Origin: a virus
Lineage: Duplodnaviria; Heunggongvirae; Uroviricota; Caudoviricetes
IMG/VR virus record: IMGVR_UViG_2588253749_000003
Location: 1 to 41,222 of that record
Length of the DNA: 41,222 bases
Strand: one strand, 5' to 3'
Each line of letters starts with the position of its first letter. Positions within the stretch are counted from its first letter, which is position 1. The translations under genes were made by a program, and so were the position numbers. Of this stretch, positions 4,175-16,141 are shown piece by piece. Under the pieces are notes generated by a model. It did no database searches, was not told the origin of the DNA, and was given only the letters and a program-made list of their open reading frames with translations.

Positions 4175-4361
4175 TGCCAGCATCCTTTTTGCATCAGGCG
4201 TAAACGGGCCAGCATTGAAACAATGCATATTTTATTTAATAGCTCCCGTTCTTGTTTTCTCTTGTTAATGGCATCTTCAGTAAATACTGGGTTACTGATA
4301 GTGACACCAATTTCAAAACAACCTTCAGACGTATTAACGTTTGGTAATAACGTTTCCATTA
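4171..4361 (-). CDS. Hypothetical small protein
   Basis: ORF with GAGG SD before ATG (METLLPNV...); in leftward early operon. Confidence 0.3.
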
Positions 4362-4930
4362 TCGCGTCCTCAACAATGAATTTTGTGATGCGGCGCCTGG
4401 TGCCTCCAGGTGACGTTAACCAGTTAATAATTAACGCCGGATACAGAGAACCCACCCATAAGAACCAATACGGAAGTCAACTGGCCTTTTTAACTGTTCC
4501 GCGTGCGCTGAGCCGCATTCACCGCATCACAAAATTCACTTTAAAAGGGGCGGCTATCATGGGAAAAACAAAACGGATACCCGCCAAAAGGTAATCAACA
4601 TGGGTTGTTGCAGCGGGGTTGTCACTCAGGCGTATGGTCAACCTGACAACCCGGTAGACATTTGCGAGGAACGGAGAACCCCCGCCATACTTACCGCCGC
4701 GCCATTTCGCGGAGTGCCACAACCGGAAGCGCACGGTCGACGAAAATTTAACGACAGGCTATCTATGAACCAACTACCTCGCCGTGCGCTTTCGCGTTAT
4801 GCTCTGACTTTTCAGGGATATATCCTTTCTGTAAACTGTCAGTGCCGGATGCTCACCCGTGTCCGGCGCACACACTCCACCTCACCCGTGGAGAACTCCT
4901 TAATTACCAACCCTCAGGAGGGTGAAATTT

Positions 4931-6579: not shown

Positions 6580-7056
6580 TTAAGTTCCTGTCTTGGTGAT
6601 GTTCTGGCTTTTCCGTTTTGATTCTTGATTTTTCAGATAGTTAGCTACCTTCATTTCCATTGCGGCAATGTAGGCGCGAACGTCATGATCAACCCAACTA
6701 GGCTCCGTAGCATTTCCAGATAAGATGAAAGCCACAATTGCTCTTTTTTCATCAGAGGCGGCTTGATAAAGGCTGTTTATGTCTAAAAGTTCACTTTTTG
6801 TATCTGAAGTGGATGGGGTTGGTATGGGGTATTCGTTAAGCCCCCAATGCTCTGGACCAACCACATCAGAAAAGAAACGCCATAGTTCTGGAAGTTTGTC
6901 TTTACTTATCGAACCTTTCTTAATCCAGTCATGGATTGATGGTGGTTGGACTTTGAAATGACGTGCGATTTCCGCCTTTGATTTGACGGCTCCTGATGCA
7001 ATTTTTTTGTTAATGGCCTGCTCTATCGCTCGGCCTAAGTCTTTACCACTAAGCAT
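6580..7056 (-). CDS. CI-like phage repressor (XRE-family HTH)
   Basis: 158-aa ORF divergent from cro-like gene; N-terminal HTH-like region; operator-rich divergent intergenic region. Confidence 0.72.
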   Translation of the reverse strand: MLSGKDLGRAIEQAINKKIASGAVKSKAEIARHFKVQPPSIHDWIKKGSISKDKLPELWRFFSDVVGPEHWGLNEYPIPTPSTSDTKSELLDINSLYQAASDEKRAIVAFILSGNATEPSWVDHDVRAYIAAMEMKVANYLKNQESKRKSQNITKTGT

Positions 7057-7110: not shown

Positions 7111-7153
7111 TAGGCATAGCCTATTGACAATTTCATTAGGCTAAGCCTAATAT
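7111..7153 (+). promoter_or_regulatory. OR/PR-like region: two operator palindromes overlapping a rightward sigma70 promoter
   Basis: TAGGCATAGCCTA (7111-7123) and TAGGCTAAGCCTA (7137-7149); TTGACA at 7124-7129 and TAATAT at 7148-7153 (18-nt spacer) upstream of cro-like ATG 7181. Confidence 0.6.
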
Positions 7154-7913: not shown

Positions 7914-7984
7914 CTGACAATAGCCATATCGAATCGCTTCCGGCAACTCGTGAGTAAAAAGATTCGGTATCAGAAGAGGTGAGT

Positions 7985-9055
7985 ATGGCTAACGCCTGGC
8001 TCAGATTATGGCATGACATGCCAAATGACCCTAAGTGGCGAACAATTGCCAGGGTGTCAGGGCAGCCAATTGCAACAGTGATGGCAGTGTATATCCACCT
8101 CCTGGTGAGCGCGTCACGAAATGTCACGCGAGGTCACATTGATGTCACGACAGAAGATTTGGCAAGTGCGCTCGACGTGACAGAAGAGGTAATTGATTCA
8201 ATTTTGCAGACGATGCAGGGGCGGGTACTTGATGGTGATTTAATCACTGGATGGGAAAAACGCCAGGTGCTGAAAGAGGACAACGGCAATATTTCGCAAA
8301 CCGCAAAATCTCCGGCAGAGCGCAAGAGGGCGCAGCGAGAGAGGGAAAGAAAGCGGGAACAAAATGGCGATTGTCACGGCGAGTCACGAAATGTCACGCA
8401 CATGTCACGACGAGTCACGACAGATAAAGATACAGATAAAGATACAGATCAAGAAGATCAAAACACTATGGTCCATGGCGTAAAAAACGCCACGAACCAG
8501 GCAGGGGATGTTCAGACCGTCACTCCTGGCCAGCCCGCAGGCACGACACCGGAAGCCGATTCAGCGTATGCGCTGAAAGCCGATTCGGGCGCTGTGCAGC
8601 AGGTGATGACCGCAAGGCAGGAGCAATCACACCAACTTCAGCAGCCTGAAGCCGATTCCGCCATTCAGCGGGAAGCCGATCGGGTAGTCCCGGAAAACAC
8701 CGGGCAGCCTGTGGGACGAGTGGATTATCCTGATGTGTTCGAACAGGTCTGGCGGGAATACCCGTTGCGTGCTGGGGCAAACCCGAAGAAATCCGCTTTC
8801 AGTGCCTGGAAGGCCAGATTACGCGAGGGGGTGTCACCAGAGGCCATGCTGGATGGCGTGAGGCGTTACGCAAGATACCTTGCGGCTACCGGGAAAACGG
8901 GAACGGAATTTGTTCAGCGAGCGACGACGTTTTTTGGACCGGACCGGAATTTTGAAAACCCCTGGCTGCTCCCGGTAAGCGGCACGAACAACCAGCGTTG
9001 TGTGAATCATATTTCTGAACCGGATACCGAAATTCCACCGGGCTTCAGGGGGTAA
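7985..9055 (+). CDS. Replisome organizer / replication initiator (O-like) with internal ori iterons
   Basis: N-terminus AWLRLWHDMPNDPKWRTIA fits phage replisome-organizer N-terminal pattern; two internal clusters of GTCACG direct repeats; GAGGTG SD before ATG 7985. Confidence 0.65.
   Translation: MANAWLRLWHDMPNDPKWRTIARVSGQPIATVMAVYIHLLVSASRNVTRGHIDVTTEDLASALDVTEEVIDSILQTMQGRVLDGDLITGWEKRQVLKEDNGNISQTAKSPAERKRAQRERERKREQNGDCHGESRNVTHMSRRVTTDKDTDKDTDQEDQNTMVHGVKNATNQAGDVQTVTPGQPAGTTPEADSAYALKADSGAVQQVMTARQEQSHQLQQPEADSAIQREADRVVPENTGQPVGRVDYPDVFEQVWREYPLRAGANPKKSAFSAWKARLREGVSPEAMLDGVRRYARYLAATGKTGTEFVQRATTFFGPDRNFENPWLLPVSGTNNQRCVNHISEPDTEIPPGFRG
8112..8152. repeat. Iteron cluster 1 (4 copies GTCACG/GTCACA at about 10-11 bp spacing)
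   Basis: gcGTCACGaaatGTCACGcgagGTCACattgatGTCACGacag read directly. Confidence 0.7.
8372..8447. repeat. Iteron cluster 2 (5 copies GTCACG) followed by tandem cagataaagata repeats
   Basis: ttGTCACGgcgaGTCACGaaatGTCACGcacatGTCACGacgaGTCACGacag then gataaagatacagataaagatacagat. Confidence 0.7.
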
Positions 9056-9095
9056 GTGTTGATTTCTGGTCATGAGGTAATTTTCAGGAGGACTT

Positions 9096-9518
9096 GTGGC
9101 AAAAGTTTTTACACAAGAAGAGCGAGAAAAAATTAAAGGGCAGGTTGTTGAACTCGTACGCCAGAGTGGGCGTGAGACGTTACGGCAACTGGAAGTCAAG
9201 ACAGGTGCGACAAGATATCTGATGAGCGTTCTCGCAAGAGAGCTGGTTGCCAGCGGCGATGTATACAACTCTGGTTACGGGTTATTCCCGTCTGAACAGG
9301 CGCGTAAGGACTGGCAAAATGCCCGTAAAAAGCTCTCAAGGGCAAAGCTGAAGAAACCATCTGCGGTTGATCCGGACCTTATCTGGTCATTACCTGACGG
9401 AGAAATACGTCGCTACGACAGGCGTCAGAACATAATCTGTCGCGAGTGCCGGAAGAGTGAGGTTATGCAGCGTGTGCTGGCATTTTATCAGGGTAATTTT
9501 CAGGAGGTGATGGCGTGA
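9096..9518 (+). CDS. Hypothetical protein
   Basis: 140-aa ORF, GTG start with AGGAGG SD upstream; no recognisable motif. Confidence 0.4.
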   Translation: MAKVFTQEEREKIKGQVVELVRQSGRETLRQLEVKTGATRYLMSVLARELVASGDVYNSGYGLFPSEQARKDWQNARKKLSRAKLKKPSAVDPDLIWSLPDGEIRRYDRRQNIICRECRKSEVMQRVLAFYQGNFQEVMA

Positions 9519-9811
9519 GGGTGAGGGTTTATATCGCCGGTCCAATGACGGGGTATGAAAATTTCAACCGTGAGGCGTTTCACAAGGCAGAAGAGGAACT
9601 GAAACGGGAAGGGCATACCGTCTTAAACCCGGCAGTACTTCCGGACGGGCTGACACAGCCGCACTACATGGATATTTGCATGGCAATGATTCGTTGTGTG
9701 GATGCGATTTACATGCTGAAAGGCTGGCAGCGGTCAGCAGGCGCTAAGGCAGAACTGGCGCTGGCGGAGAAACTGGGGCATGCAGTTATTTTCCAGGAGG
9801 AGGTACAGTGA
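9515..9811 (+). CDS. DUF4406-like / nucleoside 2-deoxyribosyltransferase-like small protein
   Basis: 98-aa ORF with RVYIAGPMTG motif typical of the deoxyribosyltransferase-like fold (from memory). Confidence 0.5.
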   Translation: MRVRVYIAGPMTGYENFNREAFHKAEEELKREGHTVLNPAVLPDGLTQPHYMDICMAMIRCVDAIYMLKGWQRSAGAKAELALAEKLGHAVIFQEEVQ

Positions 9812-10083
9812 ATATCGACGCAACAATGACGATTGGTACGGCCCTCAATACGGGGCTGGCGCTTCTTGGTTGGTGCTACATCATGTTCTGCTCATGGCGG
9901 TGGCTGTCACTGATGTTACTGAAAGAATGGAATAAACGCTGTAAACAGACGCAGCGGCAGAAGGCAATGAATGCGTTTTTTGAGACCTTCGATATTGACA
10001 GTATAGAACCAGGAGAGCCAGCTCGCGTGATTAGCAGAGGTGACGTTGTAATTCTTGTATACCGGAGTGAAGAGAAAGCATAA
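9808..10083 (+). CDS. Small membrane protein (hypothetical)
   Basis: 91-aa ORF with hydrophobic segment LALLGWCYIMFCSWRWLSLMLL; overlapping start/stop with upstream gene. Confidence 0.4.
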   Translation: MNIDATMTIGTALNTGLALLGWCYIMFCSWRWLSLMLLKEWNKRCKQTQRQKAMNAFFETFDIDSIEPGEPARVISRGDVVILVYRSEEKA

Positions 10084-10188
10084 TCCAAATCTGAATAATT
10101 AAATCCAGCACTGTAAATAAAATTTAATCCTTAACCGGAGGGATTTCTGCACCCTCAGAACATCAGGAGGCCGCCTGAAAGGGCGGTA

Positions 10189-10797
10189 ATGAAAATGACT
10201 GAATTAACAAAAGAACAATTAATCGAAGAAGCCAAATTAAAAATAGCGATTACGAAATGCCACCCCAATTCAGGGATGGCGCGAGTAGAGGGCGAGTTAT
10301 TCAAAATTGTATTGGCATCGCTGGAAGCAGAGCCAGTGGCATATCAGTATCGCCAGTGGGATGCAGAATATGATGAATGGGGAGAATGGGAAGATTGCGG
10401 GGAATATGCTTTCGAAAGATTTGTTGAGGAAGAGAAATGCCAGGAGGCAGGTGTTCAGACCCGTAAGCTATACGCCACGCCGCCAATGCTGGTGGTGCCG
10501 GATGAACGGGCTGCCTATGAGTTATTTATGGAGAAGCATTTCGGGGATTCTGTAGATCGCCGCAGGGTAAAAAATGGCGGTAGTGAATACATGGCATGGG
10601 ATATGGCGATTGGCTGGATTATCTGGTGTCACCGCGCCGCTATGTTTCAGGCCGGAAACTTTCGGAAAAATAAGAATTCGTCAACCAGCTCCCCGGCAAC
10701 TCCGGATGATTGGATAAGCTGTAGTGAGCGAATGCCGGATAGCAAAACAGCTGTTCTTGTTGCCAGGGAGTTTGACGGGAAAGGTGACTGCGAATGA
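10189..10797 (+). CDS. Hypothetical protein with DUF551-like C-terminus
   Basis: 202-aa ORF; C-terminal DDWISCSERMPDS resembles DUF551 signature (from memory). Confidence 0.45.
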   Translation: MKMTELTKEQLIEEAKLKIAITKCHPNSGMARVEGELFKIVLASLEAEPVAYQYRQWDAEYDEWGEWEDCGEYAFERFVEEEKCQEAGVQTRKLYATPPMLVVPDERAAYELFMEKHFGDSVDRRRVKNGGSEYMAWDMAIGWIIWCHRAAMFQAGNFRKNKNSSTSSPATPDDWISCSERMPDSKTAVLVAREFDGKGDCE

Positions 10798-13408: not shown

Positions 13409-13774
13409 ATGACTGAACGCATAGAATTTGTTTTGCCTTACCCGCCAACGGTGAACACTTACTGGCGACGTCGTGGCAGCACATATTTTGTATCAAAAGC
13501 CGGTGAGCGTTATCGCCGTGATGTGGCGCTTATTGTTCGCCAGCAGCGGCTGAAATTAAACCTGTCCGGAAGGCTGGTGATAAAGATTATTGCAGAGCCA
13601 CCGGATAAACGTCGTCGTGACCTGGACAATATCCTGAAAGCACCACTGGATGCGCTGACGCATGCCGGACTTCTCATAGACGACGAGCAGTTTGATGAAA
13701 TCAATATTGTGCGCGGTCAGCGCGTTCCTGGGGGGCGGCTGGGCGTGAAGATTTACAAAATTGAGAGTGAGTGA
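13409..13774 (+). CDS. rusA: RusA-type Holliday junction resolvase
   Basis: 121-aa ORF; N-terminus FVLPYPPTVNTYWRRRG and conserved acidic residues; position before Q-like gene. Confidence 0.8.
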   Translation: MTERIEFVLPYPPTVNTYWRRRGSTYFVSKAGERYRRDVALIVRQQRLKLNLSGRLVIKIIAEPPDKRRRDLDNILKAPLDALTHAGLLIDDEQFDEINIVRGQRVPGGRLGVKIYKIESE

Positions 13775-14328
13775 TCGTAAATATGATATACCCGGAAATT
13801 ACAGGCAAAAGCGGCGAGCATTTACGTCTAAAAACGCTGGAAGCCGTCTGGATCCAGGGGAAATTACGGATGTGGGGGCGTTGGTCGTACATAGGTGGTG
13901 GCAAACCAGGAAATATGTTCAATCAGTTGCTGGCATCCAAAACACTTACAAAAACTGCGATCAATGAAGCTCTGCGCAGAATAAAAAAATCAGGGATTGA
14001 TAAAACTGAGCTGGAAGCGTTTTTGCGTGAGATGATCAACAGCAAGCAAAAGAGCGGGCTGGCTTATTGTACTGATGCCGAGGCGTTATGTATCGATCGG
14101 GTAATTAGTGAAGTGTTGGCAGAGCATCCGGGATTGATTTGTATCCTCCGACAAAGATATGAAGGGCTGGGTATGAGCAAGCTGAAAATGGCAGAACAGT
14201 TAAAAAAGAATCACCCTGACTGGAGCCTGAAAACTTGTAGAAATCGCATTGATGTTTGGTTGGCGATGGCTGAAACCATGCTTTTCCTTCCAATGTGCGT
14301 GGCACTTCGGTGCTTTTCTGATAACTGA
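13771..14328 (+). CDS. Late-gene antiterminator Q-like protein
   Basis: 185-aa ORF directly after rusA and upstream of late genes; call mainly positional, start codon uncertain. Confidence 0.5.
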   Translation: MIVNMIYPEITGKSGEHLRLKTLEAVWIQGKLRMWGRWSYIGGGKPGNMFNQLLASKTLTKTAINEALRRIKKSGIDKTELEAFLREMINSKQKSGLAYCTDAEALCIDRVISEVLAEHPGLICILRQRYEGLGMSKLKMAEQLKKNHPDWSLKTCRNRIDVWLAMAETMLFLPMCVALRCFSDN

Positions 14329-14357
14329 TGATAGAAGTGCATCAGCTATCAATCTTG

Positions 14358-14386
14358 TTGACGTTCATCAAGGTCTGGACAATACT
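14358..14386 (+). promoter_or_regulatory. Candidate sigma70 promoter for the ATPase/RloB-like module
   Basis: TTGACG (14358-14363), 17-nt spacer, AATACT (14381-14386), about 30 nt upstream of ATG 14418. Confidence 0.35.
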
Positions 14387-14417
14387 TACGTTAAGTTCCA
14401 ACATATGGAAGATAAGA

Positions 14418-15608
14418 ATGATATTTACACGATTGAGATTTATCAATTTGTACGCTTTTGAGGATGCAGAGCTTAACCTGTCCTATCCAAGGAAACCTGT
14501 AAACATGCCTCTTGATGGGGAGTTTTTGGCTGGACGGCCTAAATTTTACTATAAAAAAGTCTGTATCATAACGGGGGGAAATGCTTCAGGTAAGACGTCA
14601 CTAGGGCGAATTCTTTGTGGAATTCAGGTGTTTCTAAGAACCAAAGAGTTGCGGAGTAATCTGCGAGTGAATAATAAAAATAATGATGCTTCGTTTGAAG
14701 TGGACTTTGCTACGGAGGATCATTTTCATCATCGTTTGTATGTACGCTTTGCTACCAGTGAAGGCGGAGCGCACATAATCAAAGAAATTAAATATGGTTT
14801 TGTTCAAATAGCATTAAATGATTCTTGCCATAAAACCACAGAAAAACTGAATCAACTCTTTTCTGGAAGGGCCCCAGAAGATACAGAATATTTTTTTCAG
14901 GAACTAGCTACTGATAGCGAACCAGTTGTATTGGAGTTTTTCAAGCAACTTAAGTTTTTTGGTGGATGGTACTATTTGTTGTCTGAAACTAAAGAGAGTA
15001 CCACTGCAATTTCAGGAATGAATAAAAATATTCTTGAAAGGATAATTCGCACTTTCGATTCAAGTATTATAGGAGTTACCGAGATGCTGGAGTCTGAAAG
15101 TGACGGGGATGAAAATAAATCATCTGCGGTTTATCTGATTAAATTTAAAAACTCTGATTCTCTTGTCGTTACCAGTAAAGGTGAAATAATTAACTCAGAC
15201 CGTCTTTCTCGAGGAACATACGAGGCAGTGACGGTAGCGCATTTTATAAGCGCTATTATCTCTGATTGTGAAAGACTAGGTAAGCAATCTCTAATACCAT
15301 CAATGACTTATTTTCTTGACGAGAAATTGGCTTATACACATTCAGAGTTAGAGCGTATGATTGTGGCGCTGATTATATCTAATTTGAAAGAAAATACTCA
15401 GTTTTTCTATACAACGCATAACATGGATATTTTTGAGTTGGATCTGCCTGTTCATTCGTTCATTTTTATTAAAAAAACGAAAGACTATTCGGAGTTTGTT
15501 GAAGCAAATTCAGTTGTTAAAAAAAATGACCGTAGCATGCGAAACGCTGTTGAGAGAGATGTCTTTGGTGTCTTACCTGACACATCATTAGTATCGGAGC
15601 TACTCTGA
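14418..15608 (+). CDS. ABC-type (AAA_21/OLD-like) ATPase, candidate defense component A
   Basis: Start MIFTRLRFINLYAFED (typical RecF/SMC-like N-terminus); Walker A GGNASGKTS (14574-14597); signature-like LSRGT; Walker B YFLDE; H-loop FYTTHN; visibly AT-rich. Confidence 0.75.
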   Translation: MIFTRLRFINLYAFEDAELNLSYPRKPVNMPLDGEFLAGRPKFYYKKVCIITGGNASGKTSLGRILCGIQVFLRTKELRSNLRVNNKNNDASFEVDFATEDHFHHRLYVRFATSEGGAHIIKEIKYGFVQIALNDSCHKTTEKLNQLFSGRAPEDTEYFFQELATDSEPVVLEFFKQLKFFGGWYYLLSETKESTTAISGMNKNILERIIRTFDSSIIGVTEMLESESDGDENKSSAVYLIKFKNSDSLVVTSKGEIINSDRLSRGTYEAVTVAHFISAIISDCERLGKQSLIPSMTYFLDEKLAYTHSELERMIVALIISNLKENTQFFYTTHNMDIFELDLPVHSFIFIKKTKDYSEFVEANSVVKKNDRSMRNAVERDVFGVLPDTSLVSELL

Positions 15609-16141
15609 TGGCGGGGTTGTCTAAAATAAGAATAATTTTTGTCGAAGGTGAAACAGAAAACTCTCTTTTTCTGAAGATGAAACAACAGAGAGTTATTGAT
15701 GCCAAATCAATTGTAAAAAGAAACTTTTGGCAAGAGAGCATAAGAAATTATGCGATTACTATTCCGAAGGGAAGTGATATACTAATTGTCTTTGATAGTG
15801 ATGAAGTGGAGCAATCTGCAAGATTCATTGAAAATGTAAAGTTCCTTAAAAACAGAGGGCATAAAGTTTATCTTTTGCAGCAGAAAAGAAATTTTGAGGA
15901 GGAGTTGGCCTGGTGTTGCGGAATTCCTGTAAAAAAACTAATTGCTGGGTTCTGTGCAAAAAAAACATCGGGTATAAATGATTTCAAGAGAGATTTTATT
16001 GCTTGTAACAATCAACTTTCAAAGTTACTGAAAATGGGCATGCAGGAAACTAAGTGGTTTACAAGAGATTTACATGCTGTATTGGAGCCTGTTGCAAGTT
16101 TTAAGTCATCTTTTTCTAAACATTTCAGGTTAACAAGATGA
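15608..16141 (+). CDS. RloB-like / TOPRIM-like small protein (DUF4276-like), candidate defense component B
   Basis: ATG overlaps upstream stop (TGATGG); N-terminal IIFVEGETE motif and downstream ILIVFDSDE (DxD) consistent with TOPRIM-like fold. Confidence 0.6.
   Translation: MAGLSKIRIIFVEGETENSLFLKMKQQRVIDAKSIVKRNFWQESIRNYAITIPKGSDILIVFDSDEVEQSARFIENVKFLKNRGHKVYLLQQKRNFEEELAWCCGIPVKKLIAGFCAKKTSGINDFKRDFIACNNQLSKLLKMGMQETKWFTRDLHAVLEPVASFKSSFSKHFRLTR

Follow-up and report, generated by a model that had tools for sequence, protein, structure and literature searches.

The 41,222-nucleotide stretch analysed here, referred to below as the window, spans positions 1 to 41,222 of the IMG/VR virus record IMGVR_UViG_2588253749_000003 (Caudoviricetes) and contains a gene for a 98-aa protein of the DUF4406 family, which has a minimal form of the nucleoside 2-deoxyribosyltransferase (NDT)/DNPH1-superfamily fold. 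The gene occupies positions 9515–9811 of the + strand, is listed with a GTG start and the N-terminus MRVRVYIAGPMTGYENFNREAF, and is the middle member of a cassette of three + strand open reading frames (ORFs), all GTG-started, at 9096–9518 (140 aa), 9515–9811 (98 aa) and 9808–10083 (91 aa). Both cassette junctions are 4-nt GTGA start/stop overlaps (9515–9518 and 9808–9811), and an AGGAGG Shine-Dalgarno sequence lies 5′ of every one of the three starts. Most homologues of the 98-aa protein begin with M-K/R-V/I-Y, which makes GTG 9521 a possible alternative start; Shine-Dalgarno spacing and RefSeq favour GTG 9515.

The 98-aa protein matches Pfam DUF4406 (PF14359) over nearly its whole length (128.6 bits, E = 1.3e-37, residues 4–93 on model positions 2–91 of 91, against a gathering score of 22 bits). 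An earlier note on this DNA had called the protein DUF4406-like, and this hidden Markov model (HMM) search bears that out clearly. The other family the note had named, Nuc_deoxyrib_tr (PF05014), does match, at a sub-threshold 14.0 bits (E = 0.056; gathering score 28.8 bits), and DUF1937 and DUF7768 are likewise sub-threshold. The protein also matches PHROG 355, labelled ‘nucleoside 2-deoxyribosyltransferase’ (E = 2.3e-48), whereas an NCBIfam scan gave no match, and an identical protein is already in RefSeq as WP_001297796.1, a ‘DUF4406 domain-containing protein’. Close homologues number 623, and the ratio of nonsynonymous to synonymous substitution (dN/dS) against the Salmonella orthologue is 0.12–0.14. 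The gene is under purifying selection and, given this ratio, the full-length Pfam match, the PHROG match and the number of close homologues, the ORF is real.

The family is widely distributed. Among 5426 complete E. coli genomes, 1328 carry the gene. It occupies 1653 places altogether, and for 107 of these the replicon is a plasmid; one example, at 4179–4429 of NZ_CP077569.1, lies on a 92.9-kb plasmid and has 68% nucleotide identity. These plasmid-borne copies may be phage-plasmids. Homologues occur in 528 phage records, with hosts including Arthrobacter, Vibrio, Gordonia, Mycobacterium, Pseudomonas, Aeromonas and Rhizobium, and a profile search of 1.84 billion representatives returned 17,966 clusters at E ≤ 1e-3, of which 6,371 remain at the stricter limit of E ≤ 1e-10, the total of about 18,000 being counted at 50% identity. 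When the 98-aa protein was compared with phage genomes by tblastn, almost all alignments ended at residue 74, probably because the BLAST low-complexity filter masks the Ala-rich SAGAKAELALAEKLG helix that carries the putative catalytic Glu; the tblastn coverage figures therefore understate the true match length. Some GenBank names given to short actinophage homologues are misleading: Elezi gp29 and MiaZeal gp166, both annotated ‘MazG-like pyrophosphatase’, proved on scanning to be stand-alone DUF4406 proteins, and the size of Coral gp53 (135 aa, ‘deoxycytidylate deaminase’), taken alone, suggests a similar mis-annotation.

An AlphaFold2 model of the 98-aa protein, built from a 49-sequence alignment, has a mean pLDDT of 91.2 and a pTM of 0.85. 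Its topology is β1 (4–8), α1 (19–31), β2 (35–37), α2 (48–59), β3 (64–67), α3 (75–87) and β4 (90–93). In a Foldseek search of the PDB, the top 43 ranks were held only by NDT-superfamily chains (probability 1.0; query-normalised TM-score, TMq, 0.62–0.78), and the matches comprised the NDTs of Trypanosoma, Leishmania and Chroococcidiopsis, MilB, BcmB, human and rat DNPH1, and PA1492. Within the top 40, every match is to NDT, MilB or DNPH1, at TMq 0.67–0.78. Searching BFVD gave dozens of phage models named ‘deoxyribosyltransferase’ or DUF4406, with TMq up to 0.92. With NDT, DNPH1 and MilB as its closest structural neighbours, the model belongs to the flavodoxin-like three-layer α/β fold of superfamily CL0498 (N-(deoxy)ribosyltransferase-like). 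Taken together, the HMM, AlphaFold2 and Foldseek results make the earlier assignment of an NDT-like fold correct. Pfam clan CL0498 takes in these families (PMC7308715), and the fold assignment is thus existing database knowledge.

Residue conservation was counted over 137 representative clusters at 50% identity. Ser74 and Phe22 are invariant (100%), followed by Glu80 (99%), Gly76, Tyr51 and Pro39 (98% each), Gly9 (97%), Asn18 (92%), Arg19 (90%) and Tyr6 (85%, Tyr in 116 of 137, with Phe in 17, or 12%). A broad profile of the 137 DUF4406 sequences was aligned by hhalign with human DNPH1, L. leichmannii NDT (LlNDT) and an alignment of DNPH1 orthologues, the reference sequences being checked against PDB 8qhr for human DNPH1 and 1f8x for LlNDT. 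Tyr6 (codon 9530–9532) aligns with Y24 of human DNPH1 and Y7 of LlNDT, Cys55 (9677–9679) with D80 and D72, Ser74 (9734–9736) with S98 and D92, Gly76 (9740–9742) with G100 and G94, and Glu80 (9752–9754) with E104 and E98. Aligning a narrow enterobacterial profile with single DNPH1 and NDT sequences produced spurious local matches, which were discarded. A homologue search from human DNPH1 gave vertebrate orthologues only, among the matches listed, and added little profile depth.

The segment S74-A-G76-A-K-A-E80 reproduces the [S/D]-x-G-x-x-x-E nucleophile motif, at the start of the helix that follows strand 3, in this sequence-level alignment, which carries little statistical weight. The 5′-phosphate in rat DNPH1 is bound by Ser87 together with the main chain of Gly89 and of the loop at strand 1, and the ribose hydroxyls are bound by Glu93 (PMC3834327); whether strand 1 carries Tyr or Phe is held to determine if deoxy or ribo forms are preferred (PMC7308715; PMC12884076). 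The strand-1 Tyr/Phe that positions the Glu is represented in the alignment by Tyr6, and at the 5′ position the invariant Ser74 is a small uncharged residue of the kind that permits a 5′-phosphate.

The genomic partners of more distant relatives bear on the substrate. Four distant queries yielded 149 DUF4406-bearing loci, which reduce to 51 lineages at 70% identity, and Pfam was scanned against the 129 same-strand ORFs within two genes of DUF4406. Neighbours are diverse, with 196 sequence clusters in 204 flanking ORFs on both strands. The commonest neighbour family among the 129 ORFs is PF18909, the dATP/dGTP diphosphohydrolase N-terminal domain, with four members, and the next classes are DNA methyltransferases (C5 type 3, MT-A70 type 2) and integrases (3). 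PF18909 genes are 4-nt-coupled to DUF4406 at three of our sampled loci (L114, L130 and L132) and in mycobacteriophage Aminay, and in phage MiaZeal a PF18909 gene lies two genes downstream of DUF4406, beside a MazG-like gene. Fusions in frame join DUF4406 to the PF04447 dATP/dGTP pyrophosphohydrolase (L103), to PF18909 (L226, with PF18909 first), to the PF21448 deoxynucleoside monophosphate (dNMP) kinase (L129) and to DUF6378 (L104), and BFVD holds two further UniProt entries that are named for the PF18909 domain and match the DUF4406 fold. Informative fusions were found only in the more distant lineages; among the top 150 representatives, the long proteins had no informative second Pfam or PHROG domain. 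The recurrent partners of DUF4406 are enzymes that make dAMP/dGMP from deoxynucleoside triphosphates (dNTPs) or consume dNMPs, and the association with PF18909, PF04447 and dNMP kinase is a Rosetta-stone signature of a dNMP-acting enzyme.

Other neighbours recur in smaller numbers. DNA methyltransferase genes are neighbours of DUF4406 at L144, L198 and other loci, and one lies directly downstream of it in Gordonia phage NancyRae; this small-number association could be chance, or a hint of modified-nucleotide substrates. Exonucleases, which release (d)NMPs, are neighbours at loci including L003, L017 and L016: an ‘exonuclease’ lies directly upstream in Arthrobacter phages, Escherichia phage C130_2 has an exonuclease-recombinase-SSB series upstream of the gene, and Gordonia phage Sombrero encodes a DnaQ-like subunit near DUF4406. 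In Edwardsiella (L007/L008, 4296–4901), a gene for an Rv2179c-like 3′-5′ exonuclease overlaps the 3′ end of DUF4406. At L111 (2219–2791), a YdaS/Cro-like helix-turn-helix (HTH) domain (residues 20–77) reads into DUF4406 (93–184) with no stop between them, which may reflect either a genuine fusion or merely the way the ORF was called, from its first start codon.

Judged by its active-site residues, the 98-aa protein looks like a 2′-deoxynucleotide (5′-phosphate) N-glycosidase rather than a nucleoside transferase. Our preferred reading, to which we give an even chance, is that it would be a minimal dNMP N-glycosidase of the DNPH1 kind, produced early in the lytic cycle together with the replication proteins. 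From the motif and the partners we infer the substrate class and the chemistry: the enzyme would hydrolyse the N-glycosidic bond of a 2′-deoxynucleoside 5′-monophosphate, as in DNPH1/Rcl, giving the free base and deoxyribose 5-phosphate. Glu80 would act as both nucleophile and ribose ligand, Tyr6 would orient Glu80 and disfavour a 2′-OH, and Ser74, Gly76 and the strand-1 loop (GPMTG, Asn18, Arg19) would hold the 5′-phosphate. Candidate roles are the sanitation or skewing of the dNMP pool during replication, or the removal of a nucleotide that host immunity senses or converts.

Several observations weigh against this reading. The position of the general-acid Asp, in the helix that precedes strand 3 (D80 of DNPH1, D72 of LlNDT), is Cys55 here, as throughout the enterobacterial prophage clade; among the 137 clusters position 55 is Cys in 93 (68%), Asp in 20 (15%) and Thr, Ala, Gly or Ser in the rest. 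Relocation of the general acid to Asp53, which is conserved in 41% overall, was considered and is not supported, because Asp53 is inconsistent among the Cys55 sequences (43 of 93). The model ends just past strand 4 (residues 90–93 of 98), whereas the Foldseek targets have 125–165 residues. The chain thus stops short of strand 5 and the C-terminal helix, the segment that in DNPH1 and NDT completes the active site of the partner subunit by giving it a Ser and a Met (Ser117′/Met119′). The hhalign alignments are collinear yet statistically weak, with probabilities below 7%. Their register is the same from both references and agrees with the order of secondary structures, and the Asp found in 15% of clusters falls at exactly position 55, in a ‘YMQID’/‘YLRRDL’ context resembling the ‘HEQDLEW’ of DNPH1.

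The association evidence also has to be discounted for the window protein itself. All fused or coupled relatives examined have Asp55 and are 30–44% identical to the window protein, which has Cys55, so this evidence comes from a different subclade, and no pyrophosphohydrolase or dNMP kinase gene lies beside the DUF4406 gene in the window prophage. Sequence searches of the PDB with the 98-aa protein and with the 49-sequence profile found no solved DUF4406 structure; the weak matches they returned were chance similarities to unrelated proteins. Literature searches on DUF4406, PF14359, DUF1937 and PA1492 turned up passing mentions of DUF4406 but no study of function for any of them. Finally, unrestrained hydrolysis of dNMPs would seem costly for a replicating phage.

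The best placed of the alternatives, although an unlikely one, is a TIR/DrHyd-like glycohydrolase that would act on NAD+ or ADP-ribose derivatives as a counter-defence protein, prophage toxin or exclusion factor. TIR folds do occur among the Foldseek matches, ranking after NDT, DNPH1 and MilB, and the model makes such an activity structurally possible, but neither sequence nor context speaks for it. No TIR family of Pfam matches at E ≤ 1, and a PADLOC scan of the three cassette proteins at E ≤ 1 gave no defence-system match. The Ser-x-Gly-x-x-x-Glu register fits the phosphate and ribose ligands of DNPH1, the enzymes to which relatives are fused, dNTP pyrophosphohydrolases and in one case a dNMP kinase, are not NAD-related, and DrHyd NADases are under-represented in phages according to a viral survey.

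It is doubtful that the protein is instead a non-catalytic sponge or sensor that binds and sequesters a nucleotide ligand. The substitution of Cys55 for the general-acid Asp and the missing C-terminal half-site would suit such a role, as would the small size (11 kDa) and stand-alone form that the protein has in common with known phage sponges; inactive members of the same Rossmannoid clade have, moreover, been described as nucleotide sensors. Yet Glu80 and the strand-1 Tyr/Phe are near-invariant, as expected for catalysis more than for mere binding, and the joining of relatives to other enzymes of one pathway hints that metabolites are channelled.

A further proposal, drawn by analogy and equally doubtful, is that in the Cys55 clade of enterobacterial prophages the protein would serve as a counter-defence or pool-sanitising enzyme that destroys a specific non-canonical or signalling deoxynucleotide. 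Candidate targets would be m6-dAMP, dIMP/dAMP or another modified dNMP, removed before host immunity senses or uses it, and the Asp-to-Cys change would then reflect an altered substrate or chemistry. Phage T5 Dmp depletes dAMP against Kongming (bioRxiv 2024.12.20.629578), and PUA-Cal-HAD is triggered by m6-dAMP (bioRxiv 2026.01.15.699771); the proposed activity would parallel the former and fit the trigger of the latter.

A true nucleoside 2-deoxyribosyltransferase, swapping bases between deoxynucleosides in salvage, is more improbable still. The PHROG 355 label, the annotation of many homologues in phage records and the presence of NDTs among the top fold matches all point that way. However, Nuc_deoxyrib_tr scores only 14 bits where 28.8 are required; the 5′-OH-binding Asp (D92 of LlNDT) is replaced by an invariant Ser, like that of the nucleotide hydrolases; the chain has no counterpart to the C-terminal tail that helps to form the active site of NDTs; and the enzymes fused to its relatives produce or use up dNMPs rather than nucleosides. 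The weakest alternative, a spurious or decaying ORF in a defective prophage, is suggested by the frequent defectiveness of Rac-type prophages and the mosaic flanking region, and is effectively refuted by the full-length HMM match, the low dN/dS, the intact Shine-Dalgarno and coupling signals, the identical sequence in unrelated strains and the gene's presence in so many complete E. coli genomes.

The two genes that flank DUF4406 in the cassette have families of their own. The upstream gene (9096–9518, +, 140 aa) had been described as coupled, which the GTGA overlap supports, and as unknown, which does not hold: it is a DUF977/Ren-like gene of the YdaW family, with matches to Pfam DUF977 (E = 1e-31) and to phrog_142, Ren-like exclusion protein (E = 3.8e-48). 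Phage records name its product LygF. It stands in the place of Ren, directly after the replication genes, and its product has a C-terminal motif in common with lambda Ren (ICRECRKSEVMQRVLAFY versus VFKECRQSAAMKRVLAVY, E = 2e-6, with the Ren sequence verified). The downstream gene (9808–10083, +, 91 aa), a DUF4752 gene (Pfam E = 3.8e-43), is likewise translationally coupled to DUF4406 by GTGA, as the earlier note had said. Its supposed membrane nature is plausible but unproven, since the N-terminal hydrophobic stretch reaches a maximum 19-residue Kyte-Doolittle value of 1.41 (residues 9–27), just below the usual transmembrane-helix threshold of 1.6.

Neither gene is an obligate partner. Among 80 close IMG/VR copies, which are near-identical E. 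coli sequences retrieved with a mid-diversity alignment, DUF977 lies directly upstream of DUF4406 at 57 of 79 loci and DUF4752 directly downstream at only 8 of 80, and these counts rule out such a partnership for both. The usual downstream gene, at 49 of 78 close loci, encodes a 226-aa protein; the gene that most often follows DUF4406 in E. coli genomes bears the RefSeq label ead/Ea22-like and may encode this 226-aa protein. In Salmonella Gifsy-like prophages, the DUF977-DUF4406-DUF4752 trio follows three different replication modules, in Edwardsiella DUF4406 lies in the early-left arm and is followed by the Rv2179c-like 3′-5′ exonuclease gene and then DUF4752, and in a Vibrio prophage it adjoins the integrase gene. 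In Enterobacterales, then, DUF4406 behaves as an accessory module of a mosaic kind within the early operon.

The placement of the gene in an early region, another claim of the earlier note, is also sustained. A PR-like sigma-70 promoter (TTGACA-18-TAATAT, 7124–7153, +) was found by a consensus scan with 10 of 12 hexamer matches, its function being deduced from the match. It lies between racR (6580–7056, − strand) and a cro/ydaS-like HTH gene and points away from racR; between the promoter and position 10083 no + strand terminator-like site was seen. The promoter would be expected to drive an early-right operon that includes the DUF4406 gene, and, with no intervening terminator-like site, ‘early operon’ is a fair description. 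Directly 5′ of the cassette lies a replication initiator/replisome organiser gene (7979–9055, +; phrog_3729 replication initiation protein, E = 2e-256; RefSeq ‘phage replisome organizer’).

Over its first 10 kb the window runs collinear with an E. coli lambdoid prophage of the Rac-like type, with genes for an integrase, an excisionase and a RecE-like exonuclease, and with dicB, ydfA-C, racR, cro/ydaS-like, ydaT-like and replisome organiser genes; in strain 602354 this prophage is integrated beside potC/potD. Positions 9096–10083 are 100% identical to two E. coli chromosomes, both labelled by RefSeq as encoding, in order, a ‘DUF977 family protein’, a ‘DUF4406 domain-containing protein’ and a ‘DUF4752 family protein’. 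The two genomes part from the window right after DUF4752, where they have a Q-family antiterminator gene and the window has a DUF551-containing ORF (10189–10797, 202 aa); a mosaic joint therefore lies within the 10084–10188 spacer. The gene in the window is unremarkable, an accessory gene annotated before in a mosaic early operon of lambdoid type. As a catalogued family member in a very common prophage module, its detection is not in itself novel.

A 16-nt motif marks the cassette boundaries. Its first copy, GGTAATTTTCAGGAGG, lies before the DUF977 gene (9076–9091, +) and bears that gene's Shine-Dalgarno sequence; the second, an exact repeat of it (9492–9507, +), lies inside the 3′ end of the DUF977 gene and provides the Shine-Dalgarno sequence for DUF4406; the third, degenerate copy, GTTATTTTCCAGGAGG (9785–9800, +), has 3 mismatches and serves DUF4752. 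Five matches to the motif at ≤3 mismatches were observed against 0.35 expected. The motif also encodes the C-terminal ‘..FQE’ of the preceding protein, and it may act at module boundaries, or in coupling, as a sequence favouring mosaic exchange.

Further along the window, two other features were recorded. An ATPase ORF (14328–15608, 426 aa) matches PADLOC AbiLi (E = 7.6e-26) and, weakly, Pfam AAA_15/AAA_21, and is followed with a 1-nt overlap by a 177-aa ORF with no Pfam or PADLOC match; together (14328–16141, +) they are probably an AbiL-like two-gene abortive-infection moron. The pair lies between a DUF1133/Q-like antiterminator gene (13771–14328) and an N6_N4 DNA methylase gene (16772–17821). 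At 17871–18120 (+), just 3′ of the DNA methylase gene and 5′ of the lysis genes, there are three genes for tRNAs: Met(CAT), Arg(TCG) and Arg(TCT). RefSeq labels the Met(CAT) tRNA of related prophages tRNA-Ile, presumably because a CAT anticodon can carry the lysidine modification.

Among phage protein families that lack a characterised member, DUF4406 ranks with the larger ones, as its cluster count, its phage records and its presence in a quarter of complete E. coli genomes indicate. Our analysis turns the DUF label into a concrete hypothesis, that of a minimal dNMP N-glycosidase, with a predicted substrate class and predicted catalytic residues. What is new here is the division between a clade of Asp type, with genomic links to dATP/dGTP pyrophosphohydrolases, and one of Cys type, carried by enterobacterial prophages, together with the retention of the DNPH1-type motif, the substitution at Cys55 and the loss of the C-terminal segment. 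If confirmed, the proposed activity would mean that the nucleotide metabolism of phages includes a widespread step of base excision, and it could bear on nucleotide-based immune signalling.

Among known systems, the window protein is a full-length member of Pfam DUF4406 and PHROG 355 with no difference from them, and that family has no characterised member. PA1492 of the DUF1937 family (PDB 1T1J) is 19% identical to it, belongs to a separate Pfam family and is itself uncharacterised. The Lactobacillus-type NDTs (PF05014) have the fold and the Tyr and Glu catalytic positions in common with the window protein, which differs in having Ser for the 5′-OH-binding Asp, in lacking the C-terminal Tyr carboxylate and in falling below the Pfam cut-off.

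DNPH1/Rcl (2′-deoxynucleoside 5′-phosphate N-hydrolase; hmdUMP hydrolase) and the CMP N-glycosidases MilB and BcmB offer a further comparison. Relative to these enzymes the window protein is about 45 residues shorter, lacks strand 5 and the C-terminal helix bearing the trans-acting Ser and Met, has Cys55 in place of the general-acid Asp and shows no significant sequence similarity, with PF05014 below threshold. It nevertheless keeps the Ser-x-Gly-x-x-x-Glu phosphate/ribose/nucleophile motif and the strand-1 Tyr of DNPH1. DmtZ, an NDT-fold dAMP N-glycosidase/transferase of PurZ0 Z-genome phages, is encoded adjacent or fused to a Dut-like dNTPase and has Asn instead of Asp at the general-acid position (PMC12884076). 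It differs in its size (~145 aa), its five-stranded sheet and its place in the dZ pathway, and the window region has no pyrophosphohydrolase gene beside DUF4406. Compared by description, DUF4406 relatives are analogously fused to dATP/dGTP pyrophosphohydrolases, and the general-acid position varies in both DmtZ and DUF4406.

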